13,769 bases of DNA. It comes from Candidatus Thorarchaeota archaeon (GTDB taxonomy: Archaea; Asgardarchaeota; Thorarchaeia; Thorarchaeales; Thorarchaeaceae). Shown here one piece after another: positions 1 through 13,769 of this stretch (its first letter is position 1; every line of letters begins with the position of its first letter). Below the pieces are notes generated by a model. The model was not told the DNA's origin. It saw only the letters and a program-made list of their open reading frames with translations, and searched no databases. Position numbers and translations under genes: made by a program. The stretch lies in NCBI GenBank assembly GCA_016839605.1, contig JAEOTX010000224.1, forward strand, positions 1 to 13,769, written 5' to 3'.

Positions 1-2710
1 CAATCAACCAGTCAGCCGTCTTGATGACCTCTAGATTGTGTTCGACCAAGATGACTGTGTTGCCTCCCTCTACTAACCGATTCAAAACACGAAGTAGCAC
101 ATGAACGTCAGAAGCCGAGAGACCGGTAGTGGGCTCATCGAGTAAGTAAAGCGTCTGTCCTGTGCTCCGTCGTGAGAGTTCTGAGGCGATCTTCATCCGT
201 TGACTCTCGCCGCCTGAGAGTGTGGTTGCAGGCTGTCCGAGTTCCAAATAACCAAGTCCGACGGCCACTAACGTTGAAAGCTTGTCTGCAACTTTCGGAA
301 TGTCACGGAAGAACTCGAGAGCTTCTTCGATTGTCATTGATAAGACTTCAGTGATGTTCTTGCCCTTGTAGGTCACCTCAAGGGTCTCCCTATCAAAGCG
401 GTCGCCCTTGCACACATCACAGGTCATGAAAACATCGCTCATGAAGTGCATCTCAACCCTGAGCACTCCACTTCCTTTGCACTTCTCACATCGACCCTCC
501 CGTGTATTGAAAGAGAATCTACCAATGGAGAATCCTCTAGCCTTGGCCTCAGGCATCTGTGCGAATAGGGCTCGGATCGATGCGAAGGTCTTCGTGTACG
601 TCGCGGGGTTTGATCTTGGTGTTCTGCCGATGGGCGACTGGTCAACCAATACCAATCTATCGATATGTTCCATCCCCTCAATCTCATCATGCGCTCCTGG
701 AACCGGACCGGTTCCTTCCATCCCCCGACGTAGTGCTCTATACAGGGTTTCATAGGTCAGTGTGCTCTTGCCGCTCCCTGAAACACCAGTCACGCCGATG
801 AGCTTGCCTAATGGGAACTCCACTGTGATATTCTTGAGATTATGCTGGCTCGCACCTTTCAGTACTATTTTCTCCCCATTGCCTTCTCTTCTCATATTTG
901 GTACAGGAATCTGCTTCTTTCCAGCGAGATATTGTGCGGTGAGTGACTTTGGATCTGTCAGGACATCAGCTGGAGGCCCCTCTGCCACTACACGTCCGCC
1001 ATGAATACCTGCTAGTGGACCAAGGTCGATGATGTGGTCAGCCGCCTCTATCGTATCACGATCGTGTTCTATAACCACAACAGTATTGCCAAGAGACCTC
1101 AGATGATAGAAGGTCTCGATGAGGCGGTTGATGTCGCGTGGATGGAGCCCAATCGATGGCTCGTCGAGGCAGTAAAGTACTCCTGTAAGAGCCGAACCAA
1201 TCTGAGTCGCAAGTCGTATTCTCTGACTCTCGCCACCTGAGAGGCTCATTGACAGTCTATCCAGATTCAAATATTCGAGACCCACAGAGATGAGGAACTT
1301 CAATCGAGCCCGTATCTCCTTCAAGACAAGTTCTGCAATCTTCATCTCACGTTCTGTTAGGTCGATCCTCTCGAAGAAGTCGGAAGCTTCTTCGATTGTC
1401 ATTGATGTCACAACATCGATCGGCTTGCCACTTACCGTGACTGCAAGACTCTGAGGCTTGAGCTTCCTTCCGCCGCATGACTCACATGCCATCTTTCGCG
1501 AGAGGACATTCGCGATATAGCCGGCTCGATACTGGTACCATTGCTTCTCGCTAGATTTTCCATCCTCGAAGACTTTCTCCAGCCAAGGTATAAGGCCAAG
1601 CCACTTTCGAGTAATCTCCCATTGGGATGAGTCAGTACGCTGTATGTAGTGGAGTGTTATCTCAGGTCTTCCCCATAGCAGGGTTTCACGTTGAGCCTTG
1701 TTTAGTTCAGAGTAAGGAGTGTCTAATGTGAAGCCAATTTGTTCACCAAGTGCTTCAAGACGACGAGTGAACCACGGCCTATCAGAGCCGTTCACTCTCC
1801 TGCTTATGTCATGGATGGTCATAGACTTGCTGGGTATCACGAGATCTGAGTCAACCGCCATTGTAACTCCGAGGCCATTGCATGTCGTACAAGCTCCGTC
1901 TGGCCGGTTATAGGAGAACGCTTTGGGGCTGAGCTTCTCATATTGAAGGCCGCATTTAGGACACATCAGCTGCTCTGCAAACATAAGGTCAGGTTCCCCC
2001 TCTCTTGCTATGACAGCTGCTCCCTCACCAGTTTCCAGTGCGGTCTCTAGAGACCCTATGAGTCTCTCTCGAACTTTATGGCTGATCTCAAGGCGGTCTA
2101 CAACTACCTCGATGTCATGCTTCTTTCGACCATCAATCTCAATGCCATCGATTTCTTGGATATCGCCATCCACACGCACCCTAGCAAAGCCATTCTTCAG
2201 CAAACCCTGCAGGATCTCTTCATGCCTTCCTGCTTCATCTCTTACAACAGGAGCAAGAACAAAGACTCGATGTCCACCGTTCTCATCGAGGAGGAGTCGT
2301 GCAGCTGATTCAGCAGTCAACTGCTCCATGGCTCGTCCGCACTCGACACAATGGGGGATGCCGATATTGGCATAAAGAAGACGCAGATAGTCATGGATTT
2401 CTGTACTAGTACCGACCGTCGACCTAGGGTTCTTCGTCCTGCCCTTTTGTTCAATCGAGATGGCTGGAGGAAGTCCTGTTATCTTGTCCACCTTTGGCTT
2501 GTCTAGTCTACCAAGGAAACGCCTTGCGTAAGATGATAGTGACTCGACATATCTCCTCTGTCCTTCTGCAAAGATTGTGTCAAAGACTAGTGTGGACTTG
2601 CCTGAACCTGAGGGCCCAGTCACGACAACTAGTCTGTCTCGCGGGATGTCTACGTCGACTTTCTTGAGGTTGTGTTCCTCAGCCTGACGAACCTTGATGA
2701 AGCCAGTCAA
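1..2710 (-). CDS. uvrA: Excinuclease ABC subunit A, second paralog (UvrA-2); 3' end runs off the window (903 codons visible)
   Basis: Not in the ORF track. Manual translation from TTG at 2710-2708 is open to position 2: [58 protein letters not shown]... It has both Walker A motifs ([18 protein letters not shown]), both signatures (LSGGESQR twice), both Walker B motifs ([24 protein letters not shown]), six CxxC zinc motifs (CVEC, CPKC, CTTC, CESC, CEKC, CDVC), NPRSTVGT and [16 protein letters not shown]. It ends at ...[14 protein letters not shown] at the edge, about 40 aa short of the C-terminus by comparison with UvrA-1. Confidence 0.97.
320..341. repeat. 22-bp exact direct repeat, copy 1 (agcttcttcgattgtcattgat); partner at 1385-1406
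   Basis: Read directly from the sequence. It encodes SMTIEEA in the second ABC half of UvrA-2. Confidence 0.9.
1385..1406. repeat. 22-bp exact direct repeat, copy 2; partner at 320-341
   Basis: Identical string, encoding SMTIEEA at the homologous position in the first ABC half of UvrA-2. Confidence 0.9.
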
Positions 2711-5595
2711 TCCTTCGCACCTCCCACCGCCACTAAGTCCTTCAGATATCTCCCAGTGAAAGAGGTCTTCTTCCTCACGATATCCTCCGGTGTACCTTCA
2801 GCGACAACATACCCGCCTTCGTCCCCGCCTTCAGGTCCGAGATCAATGACCCAATCAGCTGTCTTCACAACATCCAGCTGATGCTCTATCACGAGAACTG
2901 TGTTTCCAAGGTCGACAAGGCGATGTAACACTTCTAGAAGCTTCTTAATGTCTGCGAAATGAAGGCCTGTTGTAGGTTCGTCGAGCATTATCAATGTCTG
3001 CCCTGTCGCAGGTCGTGACAGAAACTTGCTGAGCTTGACACGCTGGGCTTCTCCACCCGAGAGAGTTGTAGCTGGTTGGCCTAGCTTAATGTAGCCCATT
3101 CCTACCGCACATAGAGTTTCGAGGCGCCTATGAATCGAAGGAATACCTTCGAAGAACGCTACTGCTTCGTCTATTCTCATGTCAAGGATGTCTGCGATGT
3201 TCTTCCCCTTGAATCGAACCTGTAGAGTTTCTCTATTGTACCGACGTCCCTTGCACTCAGTGCAGGTCACCTGAACGGGAGGGAGGAACTGCATCTCAAT
3301 AATCTCGACTCCTGCTCCACGGCACTTCTCACAACGCCCGCCCTTGACATTGAAACTGAATCGTCCAGGTTTATACCCGCGAATCTGTGACTCTGGAAGG
3401 CTTGAGAACATCTCCCGAAGAGGACTCCATAGTCCAACATATGTTGCTGGATTTGAGCGTGGTGTCCGGCCGATGGGACTCTGATCAATCACAATCACTT
3501 TGTCAAGCTGCTCTGCACCAGCAATCGCGTCATGGGCTCCTGGCTTTTTCTCGGCTTTGTGGAACCTTCGAGCCAGCTCCCTCTGGAGCGTTTCTACGAT
3601 GAGGCTTGACTTCCCGCTCCCTGACACTCCTGTCACTGCAATGAACATGCCAAGAGGAAATCTGATGTTTATATTCTTGAGGTTGTTATGTCTGGCGCCT
3701 TGCACCTCTATGAACCGACCATTTGGGCCTCTTCGTTTCTCAGGGACAGGAATCTCAACCTCGCCTCGGAGGTACTTCGCCGTGATCGATTCCCTTGACT
3801 TCAGAATCCTACTCAAATCGCCAGCCACTACGACCTCGCCACCCTCTGCCCCTGCGCCTGGTCCAAGGTCGACAATATAGTCAGCGCTCTTCATTGTTTC
3901 CTCATCATGCTCGACGACTAAGACAGTGTTACCGAGGTCTCGCAGTCGCATCAAGGAGTTGAGGAGCCTTTGATTGTCTCGTGCATGCAAACCAATAGAG
4001 GGTTCATCACAAACATAGGTCACTCCGACCAGGTTCGAGCCTATCTGACTAGCAAGGCGGATGCGTTGAGCTTCACCACCCGCGAGAGACGGAGCAGTCC
4101 TGTTCAGCGTCAAATAGTCAAGACCAACGTCTCTCAGAAAGCCTATCCTTCCCATGATCTCTCTGAGGATGGGGTCAGCCACTGGTTCAAAGCGTGGATC
4201 TATCTTGACATTGCTGAAGAACTCCTGAAGGCCTTTCACTGATAGGACATCAAGATCTGCAATGGAACGACCACCAAAGGTTATTGCCTGTGATTCTGGC
4301 CTGAGCCGATTGCCGTTGCAAGTGGGGCAGGTCACTTCTGACATGTACCGAGACTCGATCTGTTTTCGAATATACTCAGACTTAGTTTGAGCGTAATTTC
4401 TTACAGCATGCTGCATCCATCCTTCGAAAGGACGCCTGAAGGTTCCGGAATAGGTGACACCATATTCCTCATTCCCGCCTTCCCATGTGGACTCAAAGGT
4501 CTCTTTGCCTGTCCCATGGAGAAGTATTTTCTGCTGCTTCTTTGTGAGGTCTTTCCATTTCGTGTCGAGTGTGAAACCATACTTTTCTGCTACCTTTTTC
4601 AGGCGACTTCGTTTCAACTTCCATTGGTAACCCTTGAGAGCACCTTCACGGATGGTCAGTTCAGGATCCTCGATGAACCTCTCAGCATGAAATTCGCGAA
4701 TTGTACCCATACCTGTGCACTGAGGACATGCACCCTGAGGTGTGTTCCAAGAGAAGATTCGAGGCTCCATCTCTGGCAGACTGATTCCGCAGTCAACACA
4801 GGCGAATTGCTCTGATAGAGTGACGTCACCATCCGATTTCGAGATGACCACAACACCTTCAGCCATATTCAGTGAGGTCTCTACTGCTTCTGAGATTCGA
4901 CCCCGCTCAGATGGCTTCACTCGTACCCTATCAATGACCACCTCAATAGTGTGCTCAAAGTAGCGGTCAAGTGACATTCCTTCCTCAATATCCTTGAGTT
5001 CGCCATCCACTCGGGCTCGGATGTAACCTTTCTTGAGGAGGGCTTTGAATTCTCTGCGATACTCTCCCTTTCTTCCCCTGACAATGGGAGCCATAATCAT
5101 GATTCGAGTGCCTTCCTCAAACTGGAGGATGTTGTCCACAATTTGCTGTGAGGTCTGTGGCTCAATTTTCTTTCCGCACTCAGGACAGTGAGGCTCACCA
5201 ACTCTCGCATAGAGTAGTCGTAGGAAGTCGTAGATCTCAGTTATTGTGCCAACCGTCGACCGAGGGTTCCTACCAACACTCTTCTGGTCAATCGATATCG
5301 AAGGTGAGAGGCCAGACATGAAATCTACTTTGGGTTTCTCAAGCATCCCAAGAAACTGACGTGCATAAGGCGAGAGAGACTCCACGAATCTTCGCTGACC
5401 TTCTGCAAAGATAGTGTCAAAGACCAGGCTTGACTTCCCACTGCCCGAAACCCCAGTAACTACTGTGAGGGTGTTCTTTGGAATCTCCACGTCGATGTGC
5501 CGCAGATTGTGTTCTGCAGCACCCATGACGACGATGGACCTCGGTCCGTCGAACTCAGTTGGGTCACCCTTGCGTTTCTTTGTCGCAGCCTTCAC
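2707..5595 (-). CDS. uvrA: Excinuclease ABC subunit A (UvrA-1), 962 aa
   Basis: Two GVSGSGKSS Walker A motifs, [24 protein letters not shown], an intact UvrB-binding domain (APIVRGRKG...GYIRARVDG...VIDR), signatures LAGGEAQR and [16 protein letters not shown] and DEPTTGLH, and three zinc modules. The GTG start overlaps the uvrB TGA. Confidence 0.98.
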   Translation of the reverse strand: MKAATKKRKGDPTEFDGPRSIVVMGAAEHNLRHIDVEIPKNTLTVVTGVSGSGKSSLVFDTIFAEGQRRFVESLSPYARQFLGMLEKPKVDFMSGLSPSISIDQKSVGRNPRSTVGTITEIYDFLRLLYARVGEPHCPECGKKIEPQTSQQIVDNILQFEEGTRIMIMAPIVRGRKGEYRREFKALLKKGYIRARVDGELKDIEEGMSLDRYFEHTIEVVIDRVRVKPSERGRISEAVETSLNMAEGVVVISKSDGDVTLSEQFACVDCGISLPEMEPRIFSWNTPQGACPQCTGMGTIREFHAERFIEDPELTIREGALKGYQWKLKRSRLKKVAEKYGFTLDTKWKDLTKKQQKILLHGTGKETFESTWEGGNEEYGVTYSGTFRRPFEGWMQHAVRNYAQTKSEYIRKQIESRYMSEVTCPTCNGNRLRPESQAITFGGRSIADLDVLSVKGLQEFFSNVKIDPRFEPVADPILREIMGRIGFLRDVGLDYLTLNRTAPSLAGGEAQRIRLASQIGSNLVGVTYVCDEPSIGLHARDNQRLLNSLMRLRDLGNTVLVVEHDEETMKSADYIVDLGPGAGAEGGEVVVAGDLSRILKSRESITAKYLRGEVEIPVPEKRRGPNGRFIEVQGARHNNLKNINIRFPLGMFIAVTGVSGSGKSSLIVETLQRELARRFHKAEKKPGAHDAIAGAEQLDKVIVIDQSPIGRTPRSNPATYVGLWSPLREMFSSLPESQIRGYKPGRFSFNVKGGRCEKCRGAGVEIIEMQFLPPVQVTCTECKGRRYNRETLQVRFKGKNIADILDMRIDEAVAFFEGIPSIHRRLETLCAVGMGYIKLGQPATTLSGGEAQRVKLSKFLSRPATGQTLIMLDEPTTGLHFADIKKLLEVLHRLVDLGNTVLVIEHQLDVVKTADWVIDLGPEGGDEGGYVVAEGTPEDIVRKKTSFTGRYLKDLVAVGGAKD
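2718..2724 (-). promoter_or_regulatory. Shine-Dalgarno GGAGGTG for uvrA-2, inside the last codons of uvrA-1
   Basis: The minus strand reads GGGAGGTG-CGAAGGA-TTG, a strong SD 7 nt before the TTG that overlaps the uvrA-1 TGA. Confidence 0.8.
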
Positions 5596-7577
5596 GTTCC
5601 GTTGCCCTCAACCTTCTTTCTCAAATCCATAATCTGGTCACGAAGTTTAGCTGCTCGTTCGAACTCTAGGTTCCTAGCAGCCTCCTTCATCTGCTCTTCT
5701 AGGTCAATGATATAGTCCATCATGTCTTCGATCTCTAAGGGATCGAAGTCACCAATCTCAGTCTGTACTGTCTTCTCCAGCCGCACAATGCCTTCAGCGA
5801 TATCACGGATATCTTTCACAATGGTTCGTGGCTCGATGTTGTGTTCCTCATTGAACTTGACCTGATAGCTCCTTCTGCGATTTGTCTCATCTATGGCACT
5901 CTGCATGGCATTCGACACATGATCTCCGTATAGGATGACTCGACCACGTACATTTCGCGAGGCGCGACCCATTGTCTGAATAAGTGCCCAGTCTGTTCTG
6001 AGGAATCCTTCCTTATCAGCATCAAGAACCGCAACAAGACCTACTTCAGGAAGGTCGAGGCCTTCCCGTAATAGATTGATACCAACAAGGACATCAAACT
6101 TGCCCTGCCTGAGCTGTCGAATAATCTCAATTCTCTCAACTGTGCCAATGTCTGAGTGGAGATACCTCGCCTTGATACCAGCTTCAACAAGATACTCCGA
6201 CAACATCTCAGCTGTCTTCTTTGTGAGTGTGGTCACGAGGACTCGATCTCGATCAGCTGTCGTCTTCTTTATCTCACCCAGTAAATGGTCAACCTGTCCT
6301 ACGACTGGACGAACTGTGATGTCCGGGTCTAGAAGACCTGTCGGTCTTAGGAGCTGCTCAACAATCTGGCCGCTCGCTTTTCGCTCGAATGGACCTGGTG
6401 TGGCACTGGTGTACACAACATGTTTCATGTACTTCTCAAACTCGTCAAACTTCATTGGTCGATTGTCAAATGCGGATGGCAGCCTGAAGCCAAAGTCAAC
6501 TAGATTCCTTTTTCGAGAGAGGTCTCCGTTGTGCATTCCTCGAATTTGCGGGATTGTCATATGGCTCTCATCAAGAATCATCAGGAAGTCTTCAGGGAAG
6601 TAATCCAGCAATGTGTAGGGCTTCTCGCCCTTGTTTCGCCCATCAATGTACCGAGAATAGTTCTCAATCCCTTGAGTCCTTCCGGTTTCCCTCATCATCT
6701 CCATATCATAGAGAGTGCGTCGTTTGAGCCGGTCCGCCTCTACAAGCTTACCTTGCTGCCTGAACCACTCAACACGCTCCCGCATCTCCTGCTCAATGGC
6801 ATCCAGAGAGTCTGTGATTCGTTCATAACGAGCAATGTGGTGTCTAGCTGGGAATAGCTCAACCCATTTCATGCTCTCTAAACGTCTTGAAGTCAGGGCT
6901 TCGAGGACTGATATTCTCTCAACAACATCACCATCGAGCTCGATTCTGATACTATTCCGAGAAGCAGATGGACATACATCTATAACATCACCTCGAACGC
7001 GAAATGATCCTGGCTTAACCTCCATGTCATTTCGGTCGTACTGCATTGCTACGAGTTTCTCAAGCAGACTTCGTCTGTCAATCTCTTTTCCAACCTCTAC
7101 CATCATTCTGAAATAGTCATATTCTGATGGATTACCAACTCCATAGATGCAAGACACAGAGGCAACCACAATAACATCCGTTCGAGACCTCAGTGAGTGT
7201 GTCGCTGAGTGCCGGAGGCGTTCAATCTCCTCGTTTATGTCAGCTTCCTTCTCAATGTACATGTCCTTTGATGGCACATATGCTTCTGGCTGGTAGTAAT
7301 CATAATAGGAAACAAAGTATTCCACAGCTGCATTGGGGAAGAACTGCCGATACTCTGAGGCCAGCTGTGCAGCGAGGGTCTTGTTGTGAGAGATAACCAG
7401 AGTAGGCTTGTTGTACTTCTCAATCACATTAGCCATGGTGAATGTCTTGCCACTCCCTGTGACTCCCAGGAGCGTCTGTTGCATGAGACCGCTCTCGAGA
7501 CCCTCCACTAGTTTATCAATCGCCTGTGGCTGATCGCCTGTGGGTTCAAAGGGGGCCACCAGTTTGAACTCTGCCAT
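5592..7577 (-). CDS. uvrB: Excinuclease ABC subunit B (UvrB); preferred start ATG 7577 (661 aa), alternative GTG 7607 (671 aa)
   Basis: PTGDQPQAI, Walker A GVTGSGKT, HNKTLAAQL, beta-hairpin YYDYYQPEAY, DESH, GFRLPSAFDNRP, SATPG, GINLLREGLDLPEV, DADKEGFLR, QTMGRASRN, and the C-terminal UVR coiled coil LEEQMKEAARNLEFERAAKLRDQI. ATG 7577 has GAGGT 8 nt upstream and begins the conserved N-terminus (MAEFKLVAPF). Confidence 0.98.
   Translation of the reverse strand: MAEFKLVAPFEPTGDQPQAIDKLVEGLESGLMQQTLLGVTGSGKTFTMANVIEKYNKPTLVISHNKTLAAQLASEYRQFFPNAAVEYFVSYYDYYQPEAYVPSKDMYIEKEADINEEIERLRHSATHSLRSRTDVIVVASVSCIYGVGNPSEYDYFRMMVEVGKEIDRRSLLEKLVAMQYDRNDMEVKPGSFRVRGDVIDVCPSASRNSIRIELDGDVVERISVLEALTSRRLESMKWVELFPARHHIARYERITDSLDAIEQEMRERVEWFRQQGKLVEADRLKRRTLYDMEMMRETGRTQGIENYSRYIDGRNKGEKPYTLLDYFPEDFLMILDESHMTIPQIRGMHNGDLSRKRNLVDFGFRLPSAFDNRPMKFDEFEKYMKHVVYTSATPGPFERKASGQIVEQLLRPTGLLDPDITVRPVVGQVDHLLGEIKKTTADRDRVLVTTLTKKTAEMLSEYLVEAGIKARYLHSDIGTVERIEIIRQLRQGKFDVLVGINLLREGLDLPEVGLVAVLDADKEGFLRTDWALIQTMGRASRNVRGRVILYGDHVSNAMQSAIDETNRRRSYQVKFNEEHNIEPRTIVKDIRDIAEGIVRLEKTVQTEIGDFDPLEIEDMMDYIIDLEEQMKEAARNLEFERAAKLRDQIMDLRKKVEGNGT
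5605..5609 (-). promoter_or_regulatory. Weak SD-like motif (GAGGG) for uvrA-1
   Basis: Minus strand GGTTGAGGG-CAACGGAAC-GTG, 9 nt spacing. Confidence 0.45.
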
Positions 7578-7585
7578 CTGCTCCG

Positions 7586-7590
7586 ACCTC
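7586..7590 (-). promoter_or_regulatory. SD motif GAGGT for uvrB (ATG 7577)
   Basis: Minus strand GAGAGGT-CGGAGCAG-ATG. Confidence 0.6.
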
Positions 7591-7615
7591 TCGTCAGTGT
7601 CGCTCACACCTGACT

Positions 7616-7822: not shown

Positions 7823-10800
7823 TTATTCCAGCTCTTTTCTCTTGACAGTTACTACAATGATACTGAGTGTGATTGCAGCTAGGCATCCAATCAGTGATAC
7901 AGTAATCACCATTCGTGCAACCCTTGCTTCCATACTCGGTGGCACCTCAGGGGGAGGTGGCGGAATTGGTGGGCGCTGATCGTCTGATAAAACATAGAGA
8001 TGTGAACCACTATATGCTGCAATGTCCAGAGAGTCCTTGGAACTGGCTCCATCAAAATGTCCAACCACCGGATTCAATATTGCCTCGTTCCGAACATAGT
8101 GCCATAGGAAATCACCTGTGTGCCCATCTATGACGTTGATATACTCATGATTGGTGAAGACCATGTCTGTATGACCATCGCTATTCATGTCACCAAACAC
8201 GCAGGTTGAGTACTGTGACCAAGGTTCGTATAGAGGATATCTCATTAGAGCGTTATAACTCCAGACAATTGCACTAGAATCGTCGTATCCACGTACGCCT
8301 AGATACCTGAGATTCAACACTAGTTCATCCACACCATCATTAAGATACACATCAGCGGCATGGATCTCTCTTATTGATGCTCCTGGAGACACAGAGTACA
8401 TCTCATCTTCAACAGATGGGTGTGTATCTATTACTCTGACTTGCATACCTGAGCTCAATGCAAAGTCCTCATTGCTATCTGCGTTGAAGTAACCCGCATC
8501 GATCTCCTCGATGTCTGCGAACATATTGTACTCCCACATGTAAGCACCTGTGGCACCATTGTACACACGAGCAATGTTCTCATCTCCGCCAAAGACTGCA
8601 TCCAGGGTGAATAGACCTCTGAAGTGTCCTACTGCCAGATGGTTATTATCATCAGTGGAGTTGACACTGGACGTGTATCGATATGTATCGCCATTGTACC
8701 ACGCGAGATATGCCTCAGAACCAAATGGTTTCTCAAAGAGAACAACTATCTCATCTCCTAGGTATATGGCATTGAAGTCCCCTATATAGTAATCAACAAT
8801 CTGGAATCCTGCGGGTGCATAGATATATCCCAGTTTGGCATATGTTTCTCCTTCTGCTAGCCCAATTGTGTCTTCATCGATACGAAACGCAAAGTCAGTG
8901 TTGCCTGAATTGTCGATGTCACCGAACCGTACCATGTCTATTTGATTCCCACTAGAAATTGAAGTCATCATTGTACCAGTGTAGGCATCCCAAATTGCTA
9001 TGCGGTCATCATCATATCTGATGAACACCTCGTCATACTCATCGTGGTCAAGATCAGCCGCCCAAGCTCCCTGAATTGTAGAACCAATATCCGCATCCCA
9101 ATATGGAATGTGTGCCAGGTATTGCGGTTCTATTGAAGGACCTGAAAAATCGAGGCCATCAAATGCATCAAGGTACGAGGATAACGGTTCTGCAGGGTAG
9201 TTCCAATAGAGAGTCACAACCGAGTCCTCACCATCATCATCAAAGTCAGCAGAGGCCAATAGACCAAGCTCATCCTCGATGAAGTTGACCCATAATGGAA
9301 GACCACTCCTACCATCCACAACCGCCAGAGCAGTACCATTAACGCCTATGGCTAGGTCTATTCCTCCAGAACCACCAAAATGGCCAGATGTAGCACTGAC
9401 CTGGAATAGACTGTATGAATCAGGTGTAACAAGCTCTGCGTCATAGTGCCATTGCGTCCTTAGAGTGCCAACTTCAACAAGATATGCCCCTCCGTCCTTA
9501 GTGAGGACGAAGACCTCAGCTTCATTATCTCCATCAAAGTCATCAACTATCAAGTTCATGAGTCTTGCATCCACTGTGGAGTTGTAGAAGATAGATTCTG
9601 ATACAACATCCACAATTCTCATCATGACATCGTTACCAAACAGGACATCATCGTATCCATCTAGATTGAAGTCATACGCCTCCATTGGTTGTCGTCCAAA
9701 GCTATGACCAACCAGGTCATTTGGTGATTCATAGAGAAGGGTGCCGTCTAATGGATTGATGACCTTCACAGCATAGGTATCGTTTGCATAAGCAACTCCA
9801 AGTATTGAGTCATCTGTGAAATCACCAACAACCAATCCCCAGATATCACCGGCATCCACTGATTCGCTGTGCCAGAGGTCTCCAGTATTGTTGACAACCC
9901 ATATCACACCATCCTCGGAACCAACAACGACTTCTTTGAATCCATTACCATCAATGTCTCCGATATCCATGTCTTCGATGTCAGCACTAAACACAGTGCA
10001 ATTCCAGAGCAATTGTCCGTCTGATCCATTGTATGCAAGAAGGAATTGCTCCCCCCATTGGACACATACGATTTCTTGCGTACCATCACCATCTAGGTCT
10101 GATAACTCTAAGGACAATAGCGTGGTGTCATGAGTGACATTCCATCCAATACTGCCATCATCATCTATCATGTATAGATTCATTCGAGGTGAGCCCGTCA
10201 ATACTGAGAATACTACCTCATCCTTAGAGTCCCCGTCGACATCTCCACTATCCAATACATATCCAGCTACACCGCCATAGAGATAGAGCGATGATGCTTT
10301 CATAGATGTCTTAAACCCGCTAGCACCATGTGATGGATCTCTATACTCCCAGACAAACACCTCCCCTCGTTCACAGGAAACCCCGATCTCTTCCCATCCA
10401 TTATGGTCTGAGTCATAGACGGTTAATCCTGTGATATCATATATGAACGGGTCAGAGAGATATGTCTCTTCGTATGTCATATATCCTGATCCATTTGTGG
10501 AATGAACCATCTCGTAGACTGCCATCGTTGAGTCATATGACACAATGACCTCACGTCTGCCATCTGAGTCAGTGTCGCCGACGACCATGTTCGAAACATC
10601 ACGAAGATGGTTGTCGACCCAATCACTTGATGGATTATAGCCCCAGATAGCATCTGGATTTGGTGTTCCTCCCCAGTCAAAGATGTTGAATGCCTGAAGA
10701 TAGAGGAATCCAGTATCTAGATGACCAAGCACAGTGGGCGAATAAGTCATAGGACCACTATATGGCATGCCGCCAATATCATAATACACGAGACCTGGGT

Positions 10801-13769
10801 ATCCTGGAAAATCGAGCCTGTCTAGGTAATCGGGATAGGTATTGAGGTGGTTCTGATCACTCCATGTAGAACCGTTGTCAACACTTGCCACCATCCCGGT
10901 TCGTCTCTCAAACGGTGCACCCCCAACCTCGTAAGCAATGACGATTGGATTGCCCTCGCTCCTCAAATAGTCAATATCAGGGTACATCTCATCATAGAAG
11001 GAGTCAGTTGCTCTATGAGGGATACTATTGTTGAAGTTGAAGGACGCGTTAGTATGCATCGACCAGATATCGTAGTCACCCTTACTCGTCATTGTGTTGA
11101 TTGCAGACATTGCTATCTCAAAATCCCCATTTGGCATTTGGATGACTGATGCCTTCTGTATGTCGAAGTAGTCCCAGCCTGGGTAGGTAAGAAGATATGG
11201 ACCACTCCTCTCAGAGAGGTCTTCTTTCATGAGGTAGTAGTATGCTTCCGAAGTATCGATTTCAGATTTGACATACATGATTCCGATATGTGTAGAGTTG
11301 TAGATGAACACCTCTGGGTGATTCCTACTTGCTAGACTTTCAGTATTGTTCATTACCCATACAGGATCACTCCACCACGTATCTCCAGTGCCAAATCTGG
11401 AGACCCAAAAGTCATTCTGGCCCCAGTCACGTTCTGCTTTCCATGTAAGCCAGATTGCATTGTCGCTGCTTGTTATTGATGGTTGAGCCTCAGAAACAAC
11501 GGTGACATCATTGTAGTCTCCAGAAATTGTCTGACCGATAAATGGTACTAAAGGTACCGTATTGACTTGAAGTGATGTTGTATTCAGACCCTTTACGTAA
11601 AGCTGTTCATTGTTTACTAGCACCATCACCGCTATATCACTCGCAGCATCTAGAGCATAGGTCATATCACTAGCACATCGGTTAGTGAAAGTTAGTGTGT
11701 CAATTCCAGAAAATAGAATGGACTCGAGTTGGATGTTTGGATAATTGGGAGAAGAGGTTACTTTCGCAGCATTGATGTATTCCTCTGAACTAGCATCCCA
11801 CTCCATGATGTCAAAGCCCTTTGTGTGACCAATGATGACTTCAAGGTTTGAGTCGTAGTCCTGATCATCAATCAGAACGACACTCACAGGATTCAATGTG
11901 ACGATATCAGAAGCTGCCTCCCATACCTTCTGGAAAGTCCCACCCCAACACTCGTAGATGTATACAAATCCATCATGTTGTGTAACTCTGGTATCGTAGA
12001 CTCCGCCCAGGATAATCTCTGGGTGACTGTCTCTATCTGTATCACCGACTGCTAGACTCCTGATGTCAGCGCCCTGATAGGGGTCAGCTCCATCAGGATT
12101 GCCAAGGAGATAGTAGCGACCATCGACATCACCCGTTCTTCCAAAGTAGTCATTGAGTTCAAGCCCGCTGAATGAATCCACATCAATGTTAAAGACAAAT
12201 AGGAAAGGTCCCACAGCGACAACAAGATCTCTTCGACCATCACTGTCCATATCAATTCCTGCTTCTATGGCAGTTATCTCAGTTACGTCCTCCCATGCAA
12301 CAGATTCTACATCTAGGTAACCAAGATCTCTCAAGTCAAAAGAGTAGGCGAGTTCAATAGTATCATCTATTCCTGTCGCCTCATAGATGTAGACTTGTAG
12401 ATCACTGGTGATGATTAACTCTGCTAATCCATCCTGATCAAGATCAGTGCCAGTCAACAGATGTTTTGCATGGTCCCATATCCGTCTATTGAATTCACCA
12501 GAGATTCCCTCGAGCTGTTGGTATGCATATGGACTGGACTCACTGATTTCCGTGTGGTTGAGATCGTGTGAGCGGAACATTCGCTTGTATGTAGCATTTG
12601 AAAGGTGTTCAAAGGCATAGACATTGTTATCATAATCACCAACTACAATCTCGCCTCTTCCATCACCATCGAGGTCTCCGGATGAAATTGTCATGGTCCA
12701 GTCTTCTAGATCAAAGTCTGTGTTCCATGATTCATGCATGTGATATCCCAGATTCCTGAATGACTCACTTTTCATCAGGCAGAAGTCCATCCTCGAAACA
12801 CGTGGATATGTAGCGACTAGATATGTGTCGATGGCGTCATAGTGAGAGATTGCCCATCTGAGGGAACCAATATCCTCCTGATATGCAGCAAGTGAAAAGT
12901 CACCATTTAGTTCAATGCCTTGGCTCTCAGCGATATTCTGGAGCGTATATCCTCCAGTATTAGGAACTAACCGTATGTCTTTCAGCTTAAGCAATGTCAT
13001 AGCTGTATCTGTATCAGGATTATTGAAAATGCGCCGGTCTTCATGCCAAACAGGTTTGTCATATGTACCCTTGTTCAGGAAACATGTGGCACCATATTTG
13101 TTATCATAGCTGAGAATTAGGTCAAGGACACCATCGCCATTGATGTCAACCAATTGAGGTTGCCCCCAGAGGATGCTTCCAGTATTGAGATTGATTTCGT
13201 CAAAGTACCCAGCTTCAAATTGGAGGATTTGAGCACCTGTTTCTGAGAACATATTCCTAGCCATGTATACAAACCCATTTGATATGACCATGTCAAGGTC
13301 CCCATCATTGTCATAATCACCGAAACTCATCCTTGGAGTGGCCTGTGACATTGAAAGAATCTGAGCTATCTGGCCGGTCCAGTCAAAGGTCTTGATAGAA
13401 CCTAGCTCCATGAAGTCCTCAAATGGTGTGTTGCGGTAGTAGAAGATGATGTTAGACCTGCTACTCCACGCTGTCGGGTCTGCATATCTTCCATCTGGAC
13501 TGTACCCACCAACAACAACCATAGGCATGAGACCCTGAGGCGTTGCTGGCCAGAGATTCACAATTTCTGCAGATGTGTAGTCGTGTTGTGATAGTGTTGC
13601 CGATAGCCTACCAGTCATTGTGAAGTCTGTCTCTCCTGAAACATCAAGGGCAGTTACAACACTTGCGTCTGTTCCTACGAAATAATACGGCTGACCGTTT
13701 CCGCCCATAGATATCGGACTGGGAACTCCGTTTGTCCAAGAGTTGTAGCTTCCGATATGGGGATTTATG
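7823..13769 (-). CDS. Giant FG-GAP/VCBS-like calcium-blade multi-beta-propeller surface protein with C-terminal membrane anchor (5' end outside the window, at least 1981 aa)
   Basis: The frame stays open upstream of the track's ATG 13708 to the window edge (INPHIGSYNSWTNGVPSPIS-M). About 25 DxDxDG-like loops (GDYDNDGDLD, GDLDGDGRGE, SDLDGDGTQE, GDMNSDGHTD and others), PQQ-repeat-like blade ends (YNGSDGQLLW, VDGRSGLPLW, IDGHTGDFLW), Asp-box SVDNGSTW, PPIPPPPPEVPP linker (7937-7972), 23-aa hydrophobic helix (7844-7912), tail KRKELE, TAA at 7823-7825. Confidence 0.93.
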   Translation of the reverse strand, partial: INPHIGSYNSWTNGVPSPISMGGNGQPYYFVGTDASVVTALDVSGETDFTMTGRLSATLSQHDYTSAEIVNLWPATPQGLMPMVVVGGYSPDGRYADPTAWSSRSNIIFYYRNTPFEDFMELGSIKTFDWTGQIAQILSMSQATPRMSFGDYDNDGDLDMVISNGFVYMARNMFSETGAQILQFEAGYFDEINLNTGSILWGQPQLVDINGDGVLDLILSYDNKYGATCFLNKGTYDKPVWHEDRRIFNNPDTDTAMTLLKLKDIRLVPNTGGYTLQNIAESQGIELNGDFSLAAYQEDIGSLRWAISHYDAIDTYLVATYPRVSRMDFCLMKSESFRNLGYHMHESWNTDFDLEDWTMTISSGDLDGDGRGEIVVGDYDNNVYAFEHLSNATYKRMFRSHDLNHTEISESSPYAYQQLEGISGEFNRRIWDHAKHLLTGTDLDQDGLAELIITSDLQVYIYEATGIDDTIELAYSFDLRDLGYLDVESVAWEDVTEITAIEAGIDMDSDGRRDLVVAVGPFLFVFNIDVDSFSGLELNDYFGRTGDVDGRYYLLGNPDGADPYQGADIRSLAVGDTDRDSHPEIILGGVYDTRVTQHDGFVYIYECWGGTFQKVWEAASDIVTLNPVSVVLIDDQDYDSNLEVIIGHTKGFDIMEWDASSEEYINAAKVTSSPNYPNIQLESILFSGIDTLTFTNRCASDMTYALDAASDIAVMVLVNNEQLYVKGLNTTSLQVNTVPLVPFIGQTISGDYNDVTVVSEAQPSITSSDNAIWLTWKAERDWGQNDFWVSRFGTGDTWWSDPVWVMNNTESLASRNHPEVFIYNSTHIGIMYVKSEIDTSEAYYYLMKEDLSERSGPYLLTYPGWDYFDIQKASVIQMPNGDFEIAMSAINTMTSKGDYDIWSMHTNASFNFNNSIPHRATDSFYDEMYPDIDYLRSEGNPIVIAYEVGGAPFERRTGMVASVDNGSTWSDQNHLNTYPDYLDRLDFPGYPGLVYYDIGGMPYSGPMTYSPTVLGHLDTGFLYLQAFNIFDWGGTPNPDAIWGYNPSSDWVDNHLRDVSNMVVGDTDSDGRREVIVSYDSTMAVYEMVHSTNGSGYMTYEETYLSDPFIYDITGLTVYDSDHNGWEEIGVSCERGEVFVWEYRDPSHGASGFKTSMKASSLYLYGGVAGYVLDSGDVDGDSKDEVVFSVLTGSPRMNLYMIDDDGSIGWNVTHDTTLLSLELSDLDGDGTQEIVCVQWGEQFLLAYNGSDGQLLWNCTVFSADIEDMDIGDIDGNGFKEVVVGSEDGVIWVVNNTGDLWHSESVDAGDIWGLVVGDFTDDSILGVAYANDTYAVKVINPLDGTLLYESPNDLVGHSFGRQPMEAYDFNLDGYDDVLFGNDVMMRIVDVVSESIFYNSTVDARLMNLIVDDFDGDNEAEVFVLTKDGGAYLVEVGTLRTQWHYDAELVTPDSYSLFQVSATSGHFGGSGGIDLAIGVNGTALAVVDGRSGLPLWVNFIEDELGLLASADFDDDGEDSVVTLYWNYPAEPLSSYLDAFDGLDFSGPSIEPQYLAHIPYWDADIGSTIQGAWAADLDHDEYDEVFIRYDDDRIAIWDAYTGTMMTSISSGNQIDMVRFGDIDNSGNTDFAFRIDEDTIGLAEGETYAKLGYIYAPAGFQIVDYYIGDFNAIYLGDEIVVLFEKPFGSEAYLAWYNGDTYRYTSSVNSTDDNNHLAVGHFRGLFTLDAVFGGDENIARVYNGATGAYMWEYNMFADIEEIDAGYFNADSNEDFALSSGMQVRVIDTHPSVEDEMYSVSPGASIREIHAADVYLNDGVDELVLNLRYLGVRGYDDSSAIVWSYNALMRYPLYEPWSQYSTCVFGDMNSDGHTDMVFTNHEYINVIDGHTGDFLWHYVRNEAILNPVVGHFDGASSKDSLDIAAYSGSHLYVLSDDQRPPIPPPPPEVPPSMEARVARMVITVSLIGCLAAITLSIIVVTVKRKELE

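Follow-up and report, generated by a model that had tools for sequence, protein, structure and literature searches.

Does the giant gene at one end of a Candidatus Thorarchaeota contig encode an integrin-like adhesion protein, and with what does it act at the cell surface? The window analysed here is the entire 13,769-bp contig JAEOTX010000224.1 of assembly GCA_016839605.1 (contig C172 of genome G000). A sequence-only reading of this DNA had proposed a giant type-I membrane protein made of stacked integrin-like propellers, a large Ca2+-dependent adhesin or receptor that should not be called an integrin. Our analysis indicates that the open reading frame (ORF) is probably the C-terminal three quarters of a protein, here termed B, from a two-gene surface module found across the Asgard archaea, in which B and its partner A would form a Ca2+-stiffened contact complex.

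The giant gene and its missing start

The host assembly was 80% complete and consisted of 259 contigs. All four long ORFs of the window, that is the giant ORF, uvrB, uvrA and a second uvrA-like gene, were located on the minus strand, to which all window features below belong. The giant ORF spanned 7823..13768, with 1,981 codons plus a stop codon, and its 5' end was open at the contig edge. As had been read from the letters for 7823-13769, its product was giant, rich in Ca loops and very acidic (pI 4.05, 10.8% Asp, 1.5% Lys). The expected C-terminus was present as well. A Pro-rich stalk at residues 1933-1944 (7937..7972), kept in most homologs, was followed by a single TM (transmembrane) helix at residues 1953-1975 (7844..7912) and by a six-residue cytoplasmic tail, KRKELE (7826..7843). 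The TM helix was conserved in the family, and AlphaFold2 (AF2) returned it as the terminal helix (907-941 of model 2). In the homologs the cytoplasmic tails were 5-12 residues long and polybasic, without a conserved motif.

The closest orthologs (P0005, P0006 and P0007) were 82-83% identical to window B and 2,630-2,632 aa long. Window B aligned to their residues 654-2630, so that ~650 N-terminal residues are missing from it, the corresponding codons lying beyond the contig end. They were not found elsewhere in the assembly. Every full-length homolog began with a signal-like N-terminus, consisting of a short basic stretch, ~16 hydrophobic residues and a Pro-rich cut region, and ended with a TM helix and a polybasic tail. 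The type-I layout, for which a signal peptide had been named as the check, is therefore supported through the orthologs; the window copy itself starts past the signal. B is a ~2,630-residue type-I membrane protein, nearly all of it beta-propeller.

An Asgard host had been suggested as a possibility from the sequence, and it was verified by the small subunit (SSU) rRNA of the genome, which scored 1,323 bits on the archaeal model and 1,002 bits on the bacterial model, and by the closest orthologs, which include a record named Candidatus Thorarchaeota archaeon. The SSU rRNA gene (G000:C82:4569-6699) spanned 2,131 nt, compared with 1,478 positions of the archaeal model; the ~650 nt extra could be an intron or an insertion. 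Window DNA was found in four marine-sediment sequencing runs from a single study, possibly representing the source sample.

Propeller architecture

The protein was modelled by AF2 in two halves (residues 1-1045 and 1040-1981), each aligned with 49 full-length homologs. The mean predicted local distance difference test (pLDDT) was 83.8 for the first half, with a predicted template modelling score (pTM) of 0.79, and 84.6 for the second, with a pTM of 0.54. Both models were all-beta apart from the terminal helix, and DSSP showed four-strand blade patterns. Blade counts and nesting, as given here, derive from these patterns, from aligned ranges and from the comparative alignment rather than from inspected coordinates. 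Pfam matched FG-GAP_3 (E 2.7e-26; 92.4 bits, cut-off 26.9) in 10 stretches and FG-GAP (E 2.1e-19; 69.4 bits, cut-off 22.1) in 6 stretches. With the gathering scores of PF13517 and PF01839 exceeded, and with four-stranded Ca-loop blades forming propellers, B belongs to the FG-GAP/VCBS superfamily. The calcium-blade propellers proposed by the sequence-only reading are thus supported by both Pfam and confident models, and the estimate of four or more agrees with the more than four propellers of the models.

The window protein starts within a propeller whose beginning lies upstream of the window. This partial unit (residues 1-350; 12719..13768) had ~6 blades by DSSP count in AF2 model 1, with a pLDDT mostly between 85 and 93, and Ca loops in two of them (151, 208), both invariant. 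It is followed by five FG-GAP Ca-loop blades (residues 351-678; 11735..12718), recognised by Pfam FG-GAP and DSSP, which form the best-conserved part of the window protein. Next come a six-bladed sialidase-fold (BNR/Asp-box) propeller (residues 679-1045; 10634..11734) and two further FG-GAP Ca-loop blades, with loops at 1065 and 1119 (residues 1046-1149; 10322..10633). An eight-bladed propeller with FG-GAP-type Ca loops occupies residues 1150-1542 (9143..10321). The last, membrane-proximal propeller (residues 1543-1928; 7985..9142) had a pLDDT of ~90 in AF2 model 2, and its ~8 blades were counted from DSSP strand patterns only.

The models were compared by VIA-align with 48,000 PDB representatives. 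For residues 1150-1542 (model-2 residues 110-503) the matches were Fbw7 (7t1y_B, Z 31.2), Cdc4 (1nex_B, Z 31.0), YxaL (7eq5_A, Z 29.1) and BamB (8adg_B, Z 29.0), with ITFG2 at Z 20.7. Matches to tandem propellers reached model-2 residue ~890 (about residue 1930), and thus spanned the last propeller block. Foldseek with both multi-domain models returned generic tandem-propeller proteins only (DDB1, Utp, IFT-A). At the level of the whole giant protein, neither an NCBIfam scan nor a phmmer search against PDB sequences gave a match.

The Asp-box propeller

The propeller list of the sequence-only reading left out the ~370-residue sialidase-fold unit at ~679-1045, which splits one of its loop groups. 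In VIA-align, residues 669/681..1045 matched the GH93 arabinanase 3a72 (Z 27.9, root mean square deviation 3.1, 306 aligned), and residues ~670-1045 matched human Neu2 (1snt, Z 25.9) and more than a dozen bacterial sialidases (Z 23-27). The unit therefore has the fold of GH33 sialidases and BNR proteins, a six-bladed propeller with Asp-boxes (Z 24-28), and carries one canonical Asp-box, SVDNGSTW at 960-967. A profile of this domain gave sub-threshold sialidase matches only, located at the Asp-box.

How this unit sits in the chain was revealed by a paralog family of ~1,950-aa proteins without the Asp-box domain. A hidden Markov model (HMM) built from the C-terminal 681 residues of this family aligned in two collinear pieces in all 50 of 50 B members, with E-values mostly between 1e-7 and 1e-14. 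On the window protein, HMM positions 32-540 corresponded to residues 136-680 and positions 543-635 to residues 1058-1143. Such a split alignment to an insert-less relative indicates that the Asp-box propeller is an insertion into an FG-GAP propeller. From this sequence comparison, residues 351-678 and 1046-1149 probably make up a ring of seven blades, with the insertion point after blade 5. Conservation was 0.69 for residues 1046-1149, with a column identity of 0.6-0.8 for residues 351-678, compared with 0.36-0.57 for the Asp-box domain and 0.39-0.47 for the following propeller. The blades at 1046-1149 were poorly placed in AF2 model 2, which omits their partner blades. A propeller within a propeller is an unusual layout for a protein.

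The sialidase fold brings in a different view of B, namely a surface-anchored glycan enzyme used for polysaccharide foraging, with an active sialidase-fold hydrolase borne on FG-GAP carbohydrate-binding scaffolds, comparable to those of PL11 lyases and lambda-carrageenase. It draws on the fold match (Z 24-28) to GH33 sialidases and the GH93 arabinanase, and on the FG-GAP blades, which in Pfam and PDB searches weakly resembled the lambda-carrageenase propeller and the YesW/YesX lyases. However, we consider it improbable, because the domain is the least conserved part of B (27% mean column identity), and neither the sialidase Arg triad nor the Tyr/Glu/Asp set appears to be conserved. In 13 diverse members the only invariant residues were the Asp-box Ser, the Asp-box Trp and one Pro; in 50 members R697 and R984 were the only Arg residues at 90% conservation, as judged from sequence columns. 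Pfam, run on the domain alone, found neither BNR nor GH families, and Heimdall-type members have a large extra insertion in this region, of ~120 residues in the G264 member (L123, G264:C1). Being the most variable part, and having no invariant catalytic set, the Asp-box domain more likely has a binding or structural role than a hydrolytic one.

Calcium loops

The strict Ca-loop pattern D.[DN].[DN]G..[DE] occurred 11 times in the window protein, compared with 0.07 expected from shuffles, and a relaxed pattern 19 times, compared with 2.6 +/- 1.6. Of the about 25 loops counted by the sequence-only reading, 19 are hence confirmed by the relaxed pattern, and the surplus corresponds to degenerate blades outside our patterns. 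The loops fell into a group of two (151, 208) and a group of seven (365, 442, 506, 576, 635, 1065, 1119), the latter split by the Asp-box propeller. Six were recognisable in the eight-bladed propeller (1176, 1224, 1271, 1366, 1410, 1508) and four in the last one (1572, 1617, 1762, 1860), the remainder being degenerate. This is consistent with the 2 + 7 + 8 + 8 grouping noticed earlier, of which the nesting of the Asp-box propeller in an FG-GAP ring now makes sense.

Loops 1065, 1176 and 1410, like the first seven, had invariant or nearly invariant residues D1, D3, D5 and E/D9 across 50 homologs of 29-83% identity. The lone exception was D5 of loop 506, retained in 32 of the 50. Loop conservation was lower in the membrane-proximal propeller. 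The DxDxDGxxD/E loops of integrin and FG-GAP blades bind Ca2+, and by analogy it follows that the conserved loop residues of B should do so as well.

The partner protein A

The conserved upstream partner of B lies outside the window and was thus out of sight for the sequence-only reading. The same genome has a paralog of window B on contig C143, 39-41% identical, with a start codon placed 1 nt past the stop of a gene for a 2,180-aa protein. This gene encodes A, a protein of 2,100-2,300 aa with a signal peptide, an N-terminal domain of ~1,150 aa, ~800 aa of TSP3 repeats (Pfam TSP3_bac, 7.2e-16), one TM helix and a Lys/Ser-rich tail of 60-70 aa. The N-terminal 1,160 residues had no Pfam match, and phmmer found no match for A among PDB sequences. 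Within the host's family the identity of A proteins was 56-60%, compared with 35-39% in other Asgard families. In one A protein (L106:5205-11744) the end of the N-terminal domain, at residues ~1044-1120 and directly ahead of the TSP3 repeats, contained two hydrophobic segments with interspersed charges, which could form a buried core or a membrane-inserting hairpin.

Of the first nine loci examined, eight had an A homolog as the gene just upstream of B. In 301 Asgard genomes, both genes were detected in 66, B only in 7, A only in 19 and neither in 209; most genomes departing from co-occurrence had weak paralog matches or fragmented assemblies. In 49 genomes A lay immediately 5' of B on the same contig and strand, with an offset that varied little (6.5-9.4 kb). 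One genus had A and B fused into a single ORF of 4,716-4,901 aa (L121, G115:C28 1631-16333, minus strand; L122, G259:C144; and G165:C50). After a signal peptide, the fusion proteins read A ectodomain, TM helix, basic loop of ~65 aa, TM helix (the former signal segment of B), B ectodomain and TM helix. This topology, with a basic loop between two TM helices, puts both ectodomains outside the cell.

On contig C167 of the host genome an A gene was present up to codon 615, where it ran off the contig end in fitting orientation. The fragment was 75% identical to the A protein beside the window ortholog in a relative, and 44% identical to the A protein on C143. This affinity indicates that the locus was split into C167, an unassembled ~6.9 kb and C172, and identifies the C167 fragment as the putative A partner of window B. 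By the position of the module and by its 83% identity to the 2,630-aa orthologs, window B is assigned to the Asgard A/B pair.

A paper on Asgard cells lists a TSP3 and FG-GAP ortholog group in a supplementary table under an automatic arCOG label (arCOG10338-type), 'polymorphic toxin delivery' (PMC9834061). Following this label for related VCBS/TSP3 proteins, B could be a polymorphic toxin or a contact-dependent delivery protein. We see hardly any chance of this, since all C-termini consist of stalk, TM helix and short basic tail, with no variable toxin module, and protein length is tightly conserved. Genes downstream of B differ between genomes (uvrB at the window locus), which speaks against an immunity gene.

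Several related loci were observed besides the pair. L126 (G022:C29), L127 (G024:C4) and L128 (G021:C26) contained a paralogous three-gene variant, with a TSP3-repeat protein bearing a Lys/Ser tail, an NHL and FG-GAP multi-propeller protein of ~1,950 aa and an Fn3-containing protein of ~600 aa. In this variant the multi-propeller protein had no TM helix, and the Fn3-containing protein started with a signal peptide and ended with a TM helix, as though the membrane anchor had been split off from the propeller protein. Genes for FtsX/MacB-like ABC permeases were noticed near the A/B pair in L100, L103, L108 and G000:C167 (5207-6472), and an ABC ATPase gene in L103, all judged by their N-terminal sequences only. 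The host genome also had a separate giant surface protein locus at G000:C180:26000-32100, with two ORFs of 2,257 and 2,414 aa and many matches to the TSP3-repeat part of A; the 2,257-aa ORF also matched an FG-GAP stretch of B.

Distribution of the B family

In a search of 1.84 billion cluster representatives with a 558-position profile of residues 130-680, about 90 representatives (50% identity clusters) carried the whole module, at ~780-1350 of proteins of 2,500-3,300 aa. The paralog family of ~1,950 aa ranked below them, followed by generic FG-GAP proteins, thousands in number, that matched two blades only. All named sources of B were Asgard archaea: Thorarchaeota, Lokiarchaeota, Hermodarchaeota, Njordarchaeia, Heimdallarchaeota, Hodarchaeales and Odinarchaeota. 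The members from the last three lineages had 3,100-3,300 aa (P0082, P0099, P0105, P0118; L123) and are named 'lamin tail domain-containing protein' at NCBI. Both cultured Loki strains carry the family, with two copies in Lokiarchaeum ossiferum, and genomes with B had one to three copies.

The survey of homologs suggested by the sequence-only reading thus revealed a family that is widespread in Asgard archaea. Such a family might have been characterised already, but we found no paper that does so, and no published description of the B family or of the A/B pair was found in the Asgard literature. What is new here is the fold of each unit, the comparison of the nested Asp-box propeller, the partner contig C167 and the Heimdall, Hod and Odin members.

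A possible contact complex or coat

An ordered S-layer is missing from cultured Asgard cells, which show unidentified 'complex surface proteins', some of them bridging protrusions, as well as layers of surface densities, some at sites of high curvature (PMC9834061). The proteome of P. syntrophicum yielded no S-layer protein (PMC11284389). Cultured Asgard cells establish contacts by way of protrusions, and they crawl while adhered; in the paper on crawling no adhesion molecule is named (PMC13716822), and the supplements of the crawling-motility preprint make no mention of FG-GAP, VCBS or NEF87_004126.

On this membrane without S-layer, A and B would assemble into one Ca2+-stiffened heteromeric ectodomain complex, with both ectodomains facing outward and only the basic tail of A available inside the cell. 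A contact or adhesion role for this complex is the best-supported reading, if a tentative one as far as the role itself is concerned. The complex would most likely serve cell-cell or cell-substrate contact. The best-conserved parts of B are the membrane-distal propellers, a pattern that suggests a conserved ligand more than a changing set of targets in the environment; the distal propellers may thus bind A itself or other complexes of the same kind. The Asp-box propeller would act as a non-catalytic binding module. An adhesin or receptor role, as the sequence-only reading inferred it, is something that we likewise infer from sequence.

Several points weigh against this reading. The cytoplasmic tail of B is too short for signalling, so that only the long basic tail of A could reach cytoplasmic partners. 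What points to a physical interaction of A with B is their gene linkage and fusion, and the propeller counts come from strand patterns and alignments, as described above. Sequons for N-glycosylation were not enriched in the giant protein (17, compared with 14.3 +/- 3.7 in shuffles), and among the RNA sequencing runs searched for the window stretch, none contained it. B is also patchily distributed: it was present in 73 of the 301 Asgard genomes and in none of 68 from one well-sampled family. Within the host's genus it was found in 4 of 13 genomes, many of these assemblies being incomplete. Hence, the A/B complex is not a universal part of the Asgard envelope.

The main rival is a structural coat. 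As part of a disordered layer replacing the S-layer, A and B would shield the membrane or give it shape, for instance where protrusions curve, without any specific ligand. The lack of an ordered S-layer and the surface densities partly at high-curvature sites (PMC9834061) would agree with this, as would the predicted huge, rigid and Ca-loaded ectodomains and their strongly conserved length and architecture. However, the same patchiness makes a coat unlikely, as the pair occurred in only roughly one in four Asgard genomes of the sample, with whole families lacking it, which would be odd for a basic component of the envelope. One to three copies per genome speak against it too.

A contact role of the A/B complex would have wider meaning if the pair were the missing adhesion machinery of Asgard archaea, a Ca2+-dependent complex of two subunits forming the 'complex surface proteins' seen by cryo-electron tomography on Lokiarchaeum, with the A tail coupling inward. 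This is a speculative idea, to which we give a modest chance. If true, crawling and syntrophy would depend on A/B for contacts between cells and with the substrate, and the pair would be a counterpart of integrins in function but of independent origin, evolved among the archaea related to eukaryotes, Hodarchaeales included. Present in both cultured Loki strains, the pair is a concrete candidate for the unidentified cell-surface structures of Asgard archaea. It amounts to ~4,800 residues of predicted Ca-binding ectodomain per unit, kept together or fused across the named Asgard lineages.

Other genes of the window

The remainder of the window, at 2-7607 on the minus strand, contained nucleotide excision repair genes of bacterial type, in an Asgard contig. 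Here uvrB (5592-7607) and uvrA (2707-5595) share a 4-nt overlap, and another, diverged uvrA-like gene (2-2710) is cut by the contig end; each of the three scored above the NCBIfam equivalog cut-offs. Their G+C content was 0.49-0.51, compared with 0.44-0.46 for the giant gene. Among the matches listed for the window UvrB were both bacterial and archaeal UvrBs at ~55% identity.

Comparison with integrins and other known systems

With integrin alpha/beta, the pair shares an FG-GAP propeller with DxDxDGxxD/E loops and two single-pass type-I subunits with large ectodomains, one of which has a very short tail. However, integrin alpha has one propeller, thigh and calf legs and a GFFKR motif, whereas B has about five propeller units and neither of the other two. 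Its blades run to ~1928, where the 12-residue Pro stalk and the TM helix follow, and no thigh, calf-1 or calf-2 leg was found; GFFKR was absent from the window tail and from the homolog tails. The integrin partner has a vWA/beta-I domain. None was found in A, for which Pfam gave TSP3_bac only and PDB sequences gave no match; what A has instead is a stretch of TSP3 repeats behind a large N-terminal domain that matched no database entry. That B should not be called an integrin was rightly concluded from the sequence: leg domains, GFFKR and a beta-integrin-like partner are all missing, and B is a member of the FG-GAP/VCBS superfamily that resembles integrins in layout only.

Could B still be a true homolog or ancestor of integrin alpha or ITFG1/LINKIN, with A as a functional beta-like subunit? 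Integrin-type Ca loops in FG-GAP repeats, the type-I layout and the two-subunit arrangement would fit, and two papers attribute 'integrin repeat' proteins in Asgard genomes to Liu et al. 2021 (PMC9258230, PMC9197732); the preprint of Liu et al. 2021 does not mention integrin. Against this stand the missing legs and GFFKR and a partner without vWA/beta-I. Furthermore, integrin chains were absent from the profile matches listed and from the top 50 fold matches, although in lists so dominated by other propellers this is no proof, and the named sources of ~70 sequence homologs of B included no eukaryote. We regard such a relationship as very improbable.

A specific link to integrin alpha, ITFG1 or FAM234, all named for comparison in the sequence-only reading, was not supported either, as the Pfam and PDB matches were at motif level, over one or two blades. 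B resembles ITFG1/LINKIN in that a TM helix at the C-terminus comes after the propeller ectodomain; matches to ITFG1/LINKIN, ITFG2, FAM234, BBS2/BBS7 and EMC1 involved single blades, and the ITFG2 fold match ranked below WD40 proteins and BamB. One-blade Pfam matches were Itfg2 (36.7 bits) and, in an ortholog, BBS7 (40.9 bits) and BBS2_Mid (38.2 bits), as well as EMC1 and FAM234. Such eukaryotic FG-GAP matches covered 45-90 residues of 300-aa models. A profile search against PDB sequences gave BamB (1e-7), ITFG2 (1.7e-6), CRTAC1 (1.9e-6) and BBS2. No orthology of B to eukaryotic FG-GAP proteins is indicated.

GH33 sialidases and GH93 arabinanases share with residues 679-1045 their fold (Z 24-28) and one canonical Asp-box; in contrast to them, the domain of B has no Pfam match and no apparent conservation of a catalytic set, and lies inside another propeller. 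Prokaryotic FG-GAP/VCBS proteins (CRTAC1/ASPIC, BamB/PQQ-like) have the repeat type, the Ca loops and the eight-bladed fold (BamB, YxaL) in common with B. Compared with them, the B family is distinguished by its conserved length (~2,600-3,300 aa), named sources that are all Asgard, a fixed order of propellers, the nested Asp-box unit, a TM anchor and a partner gene.

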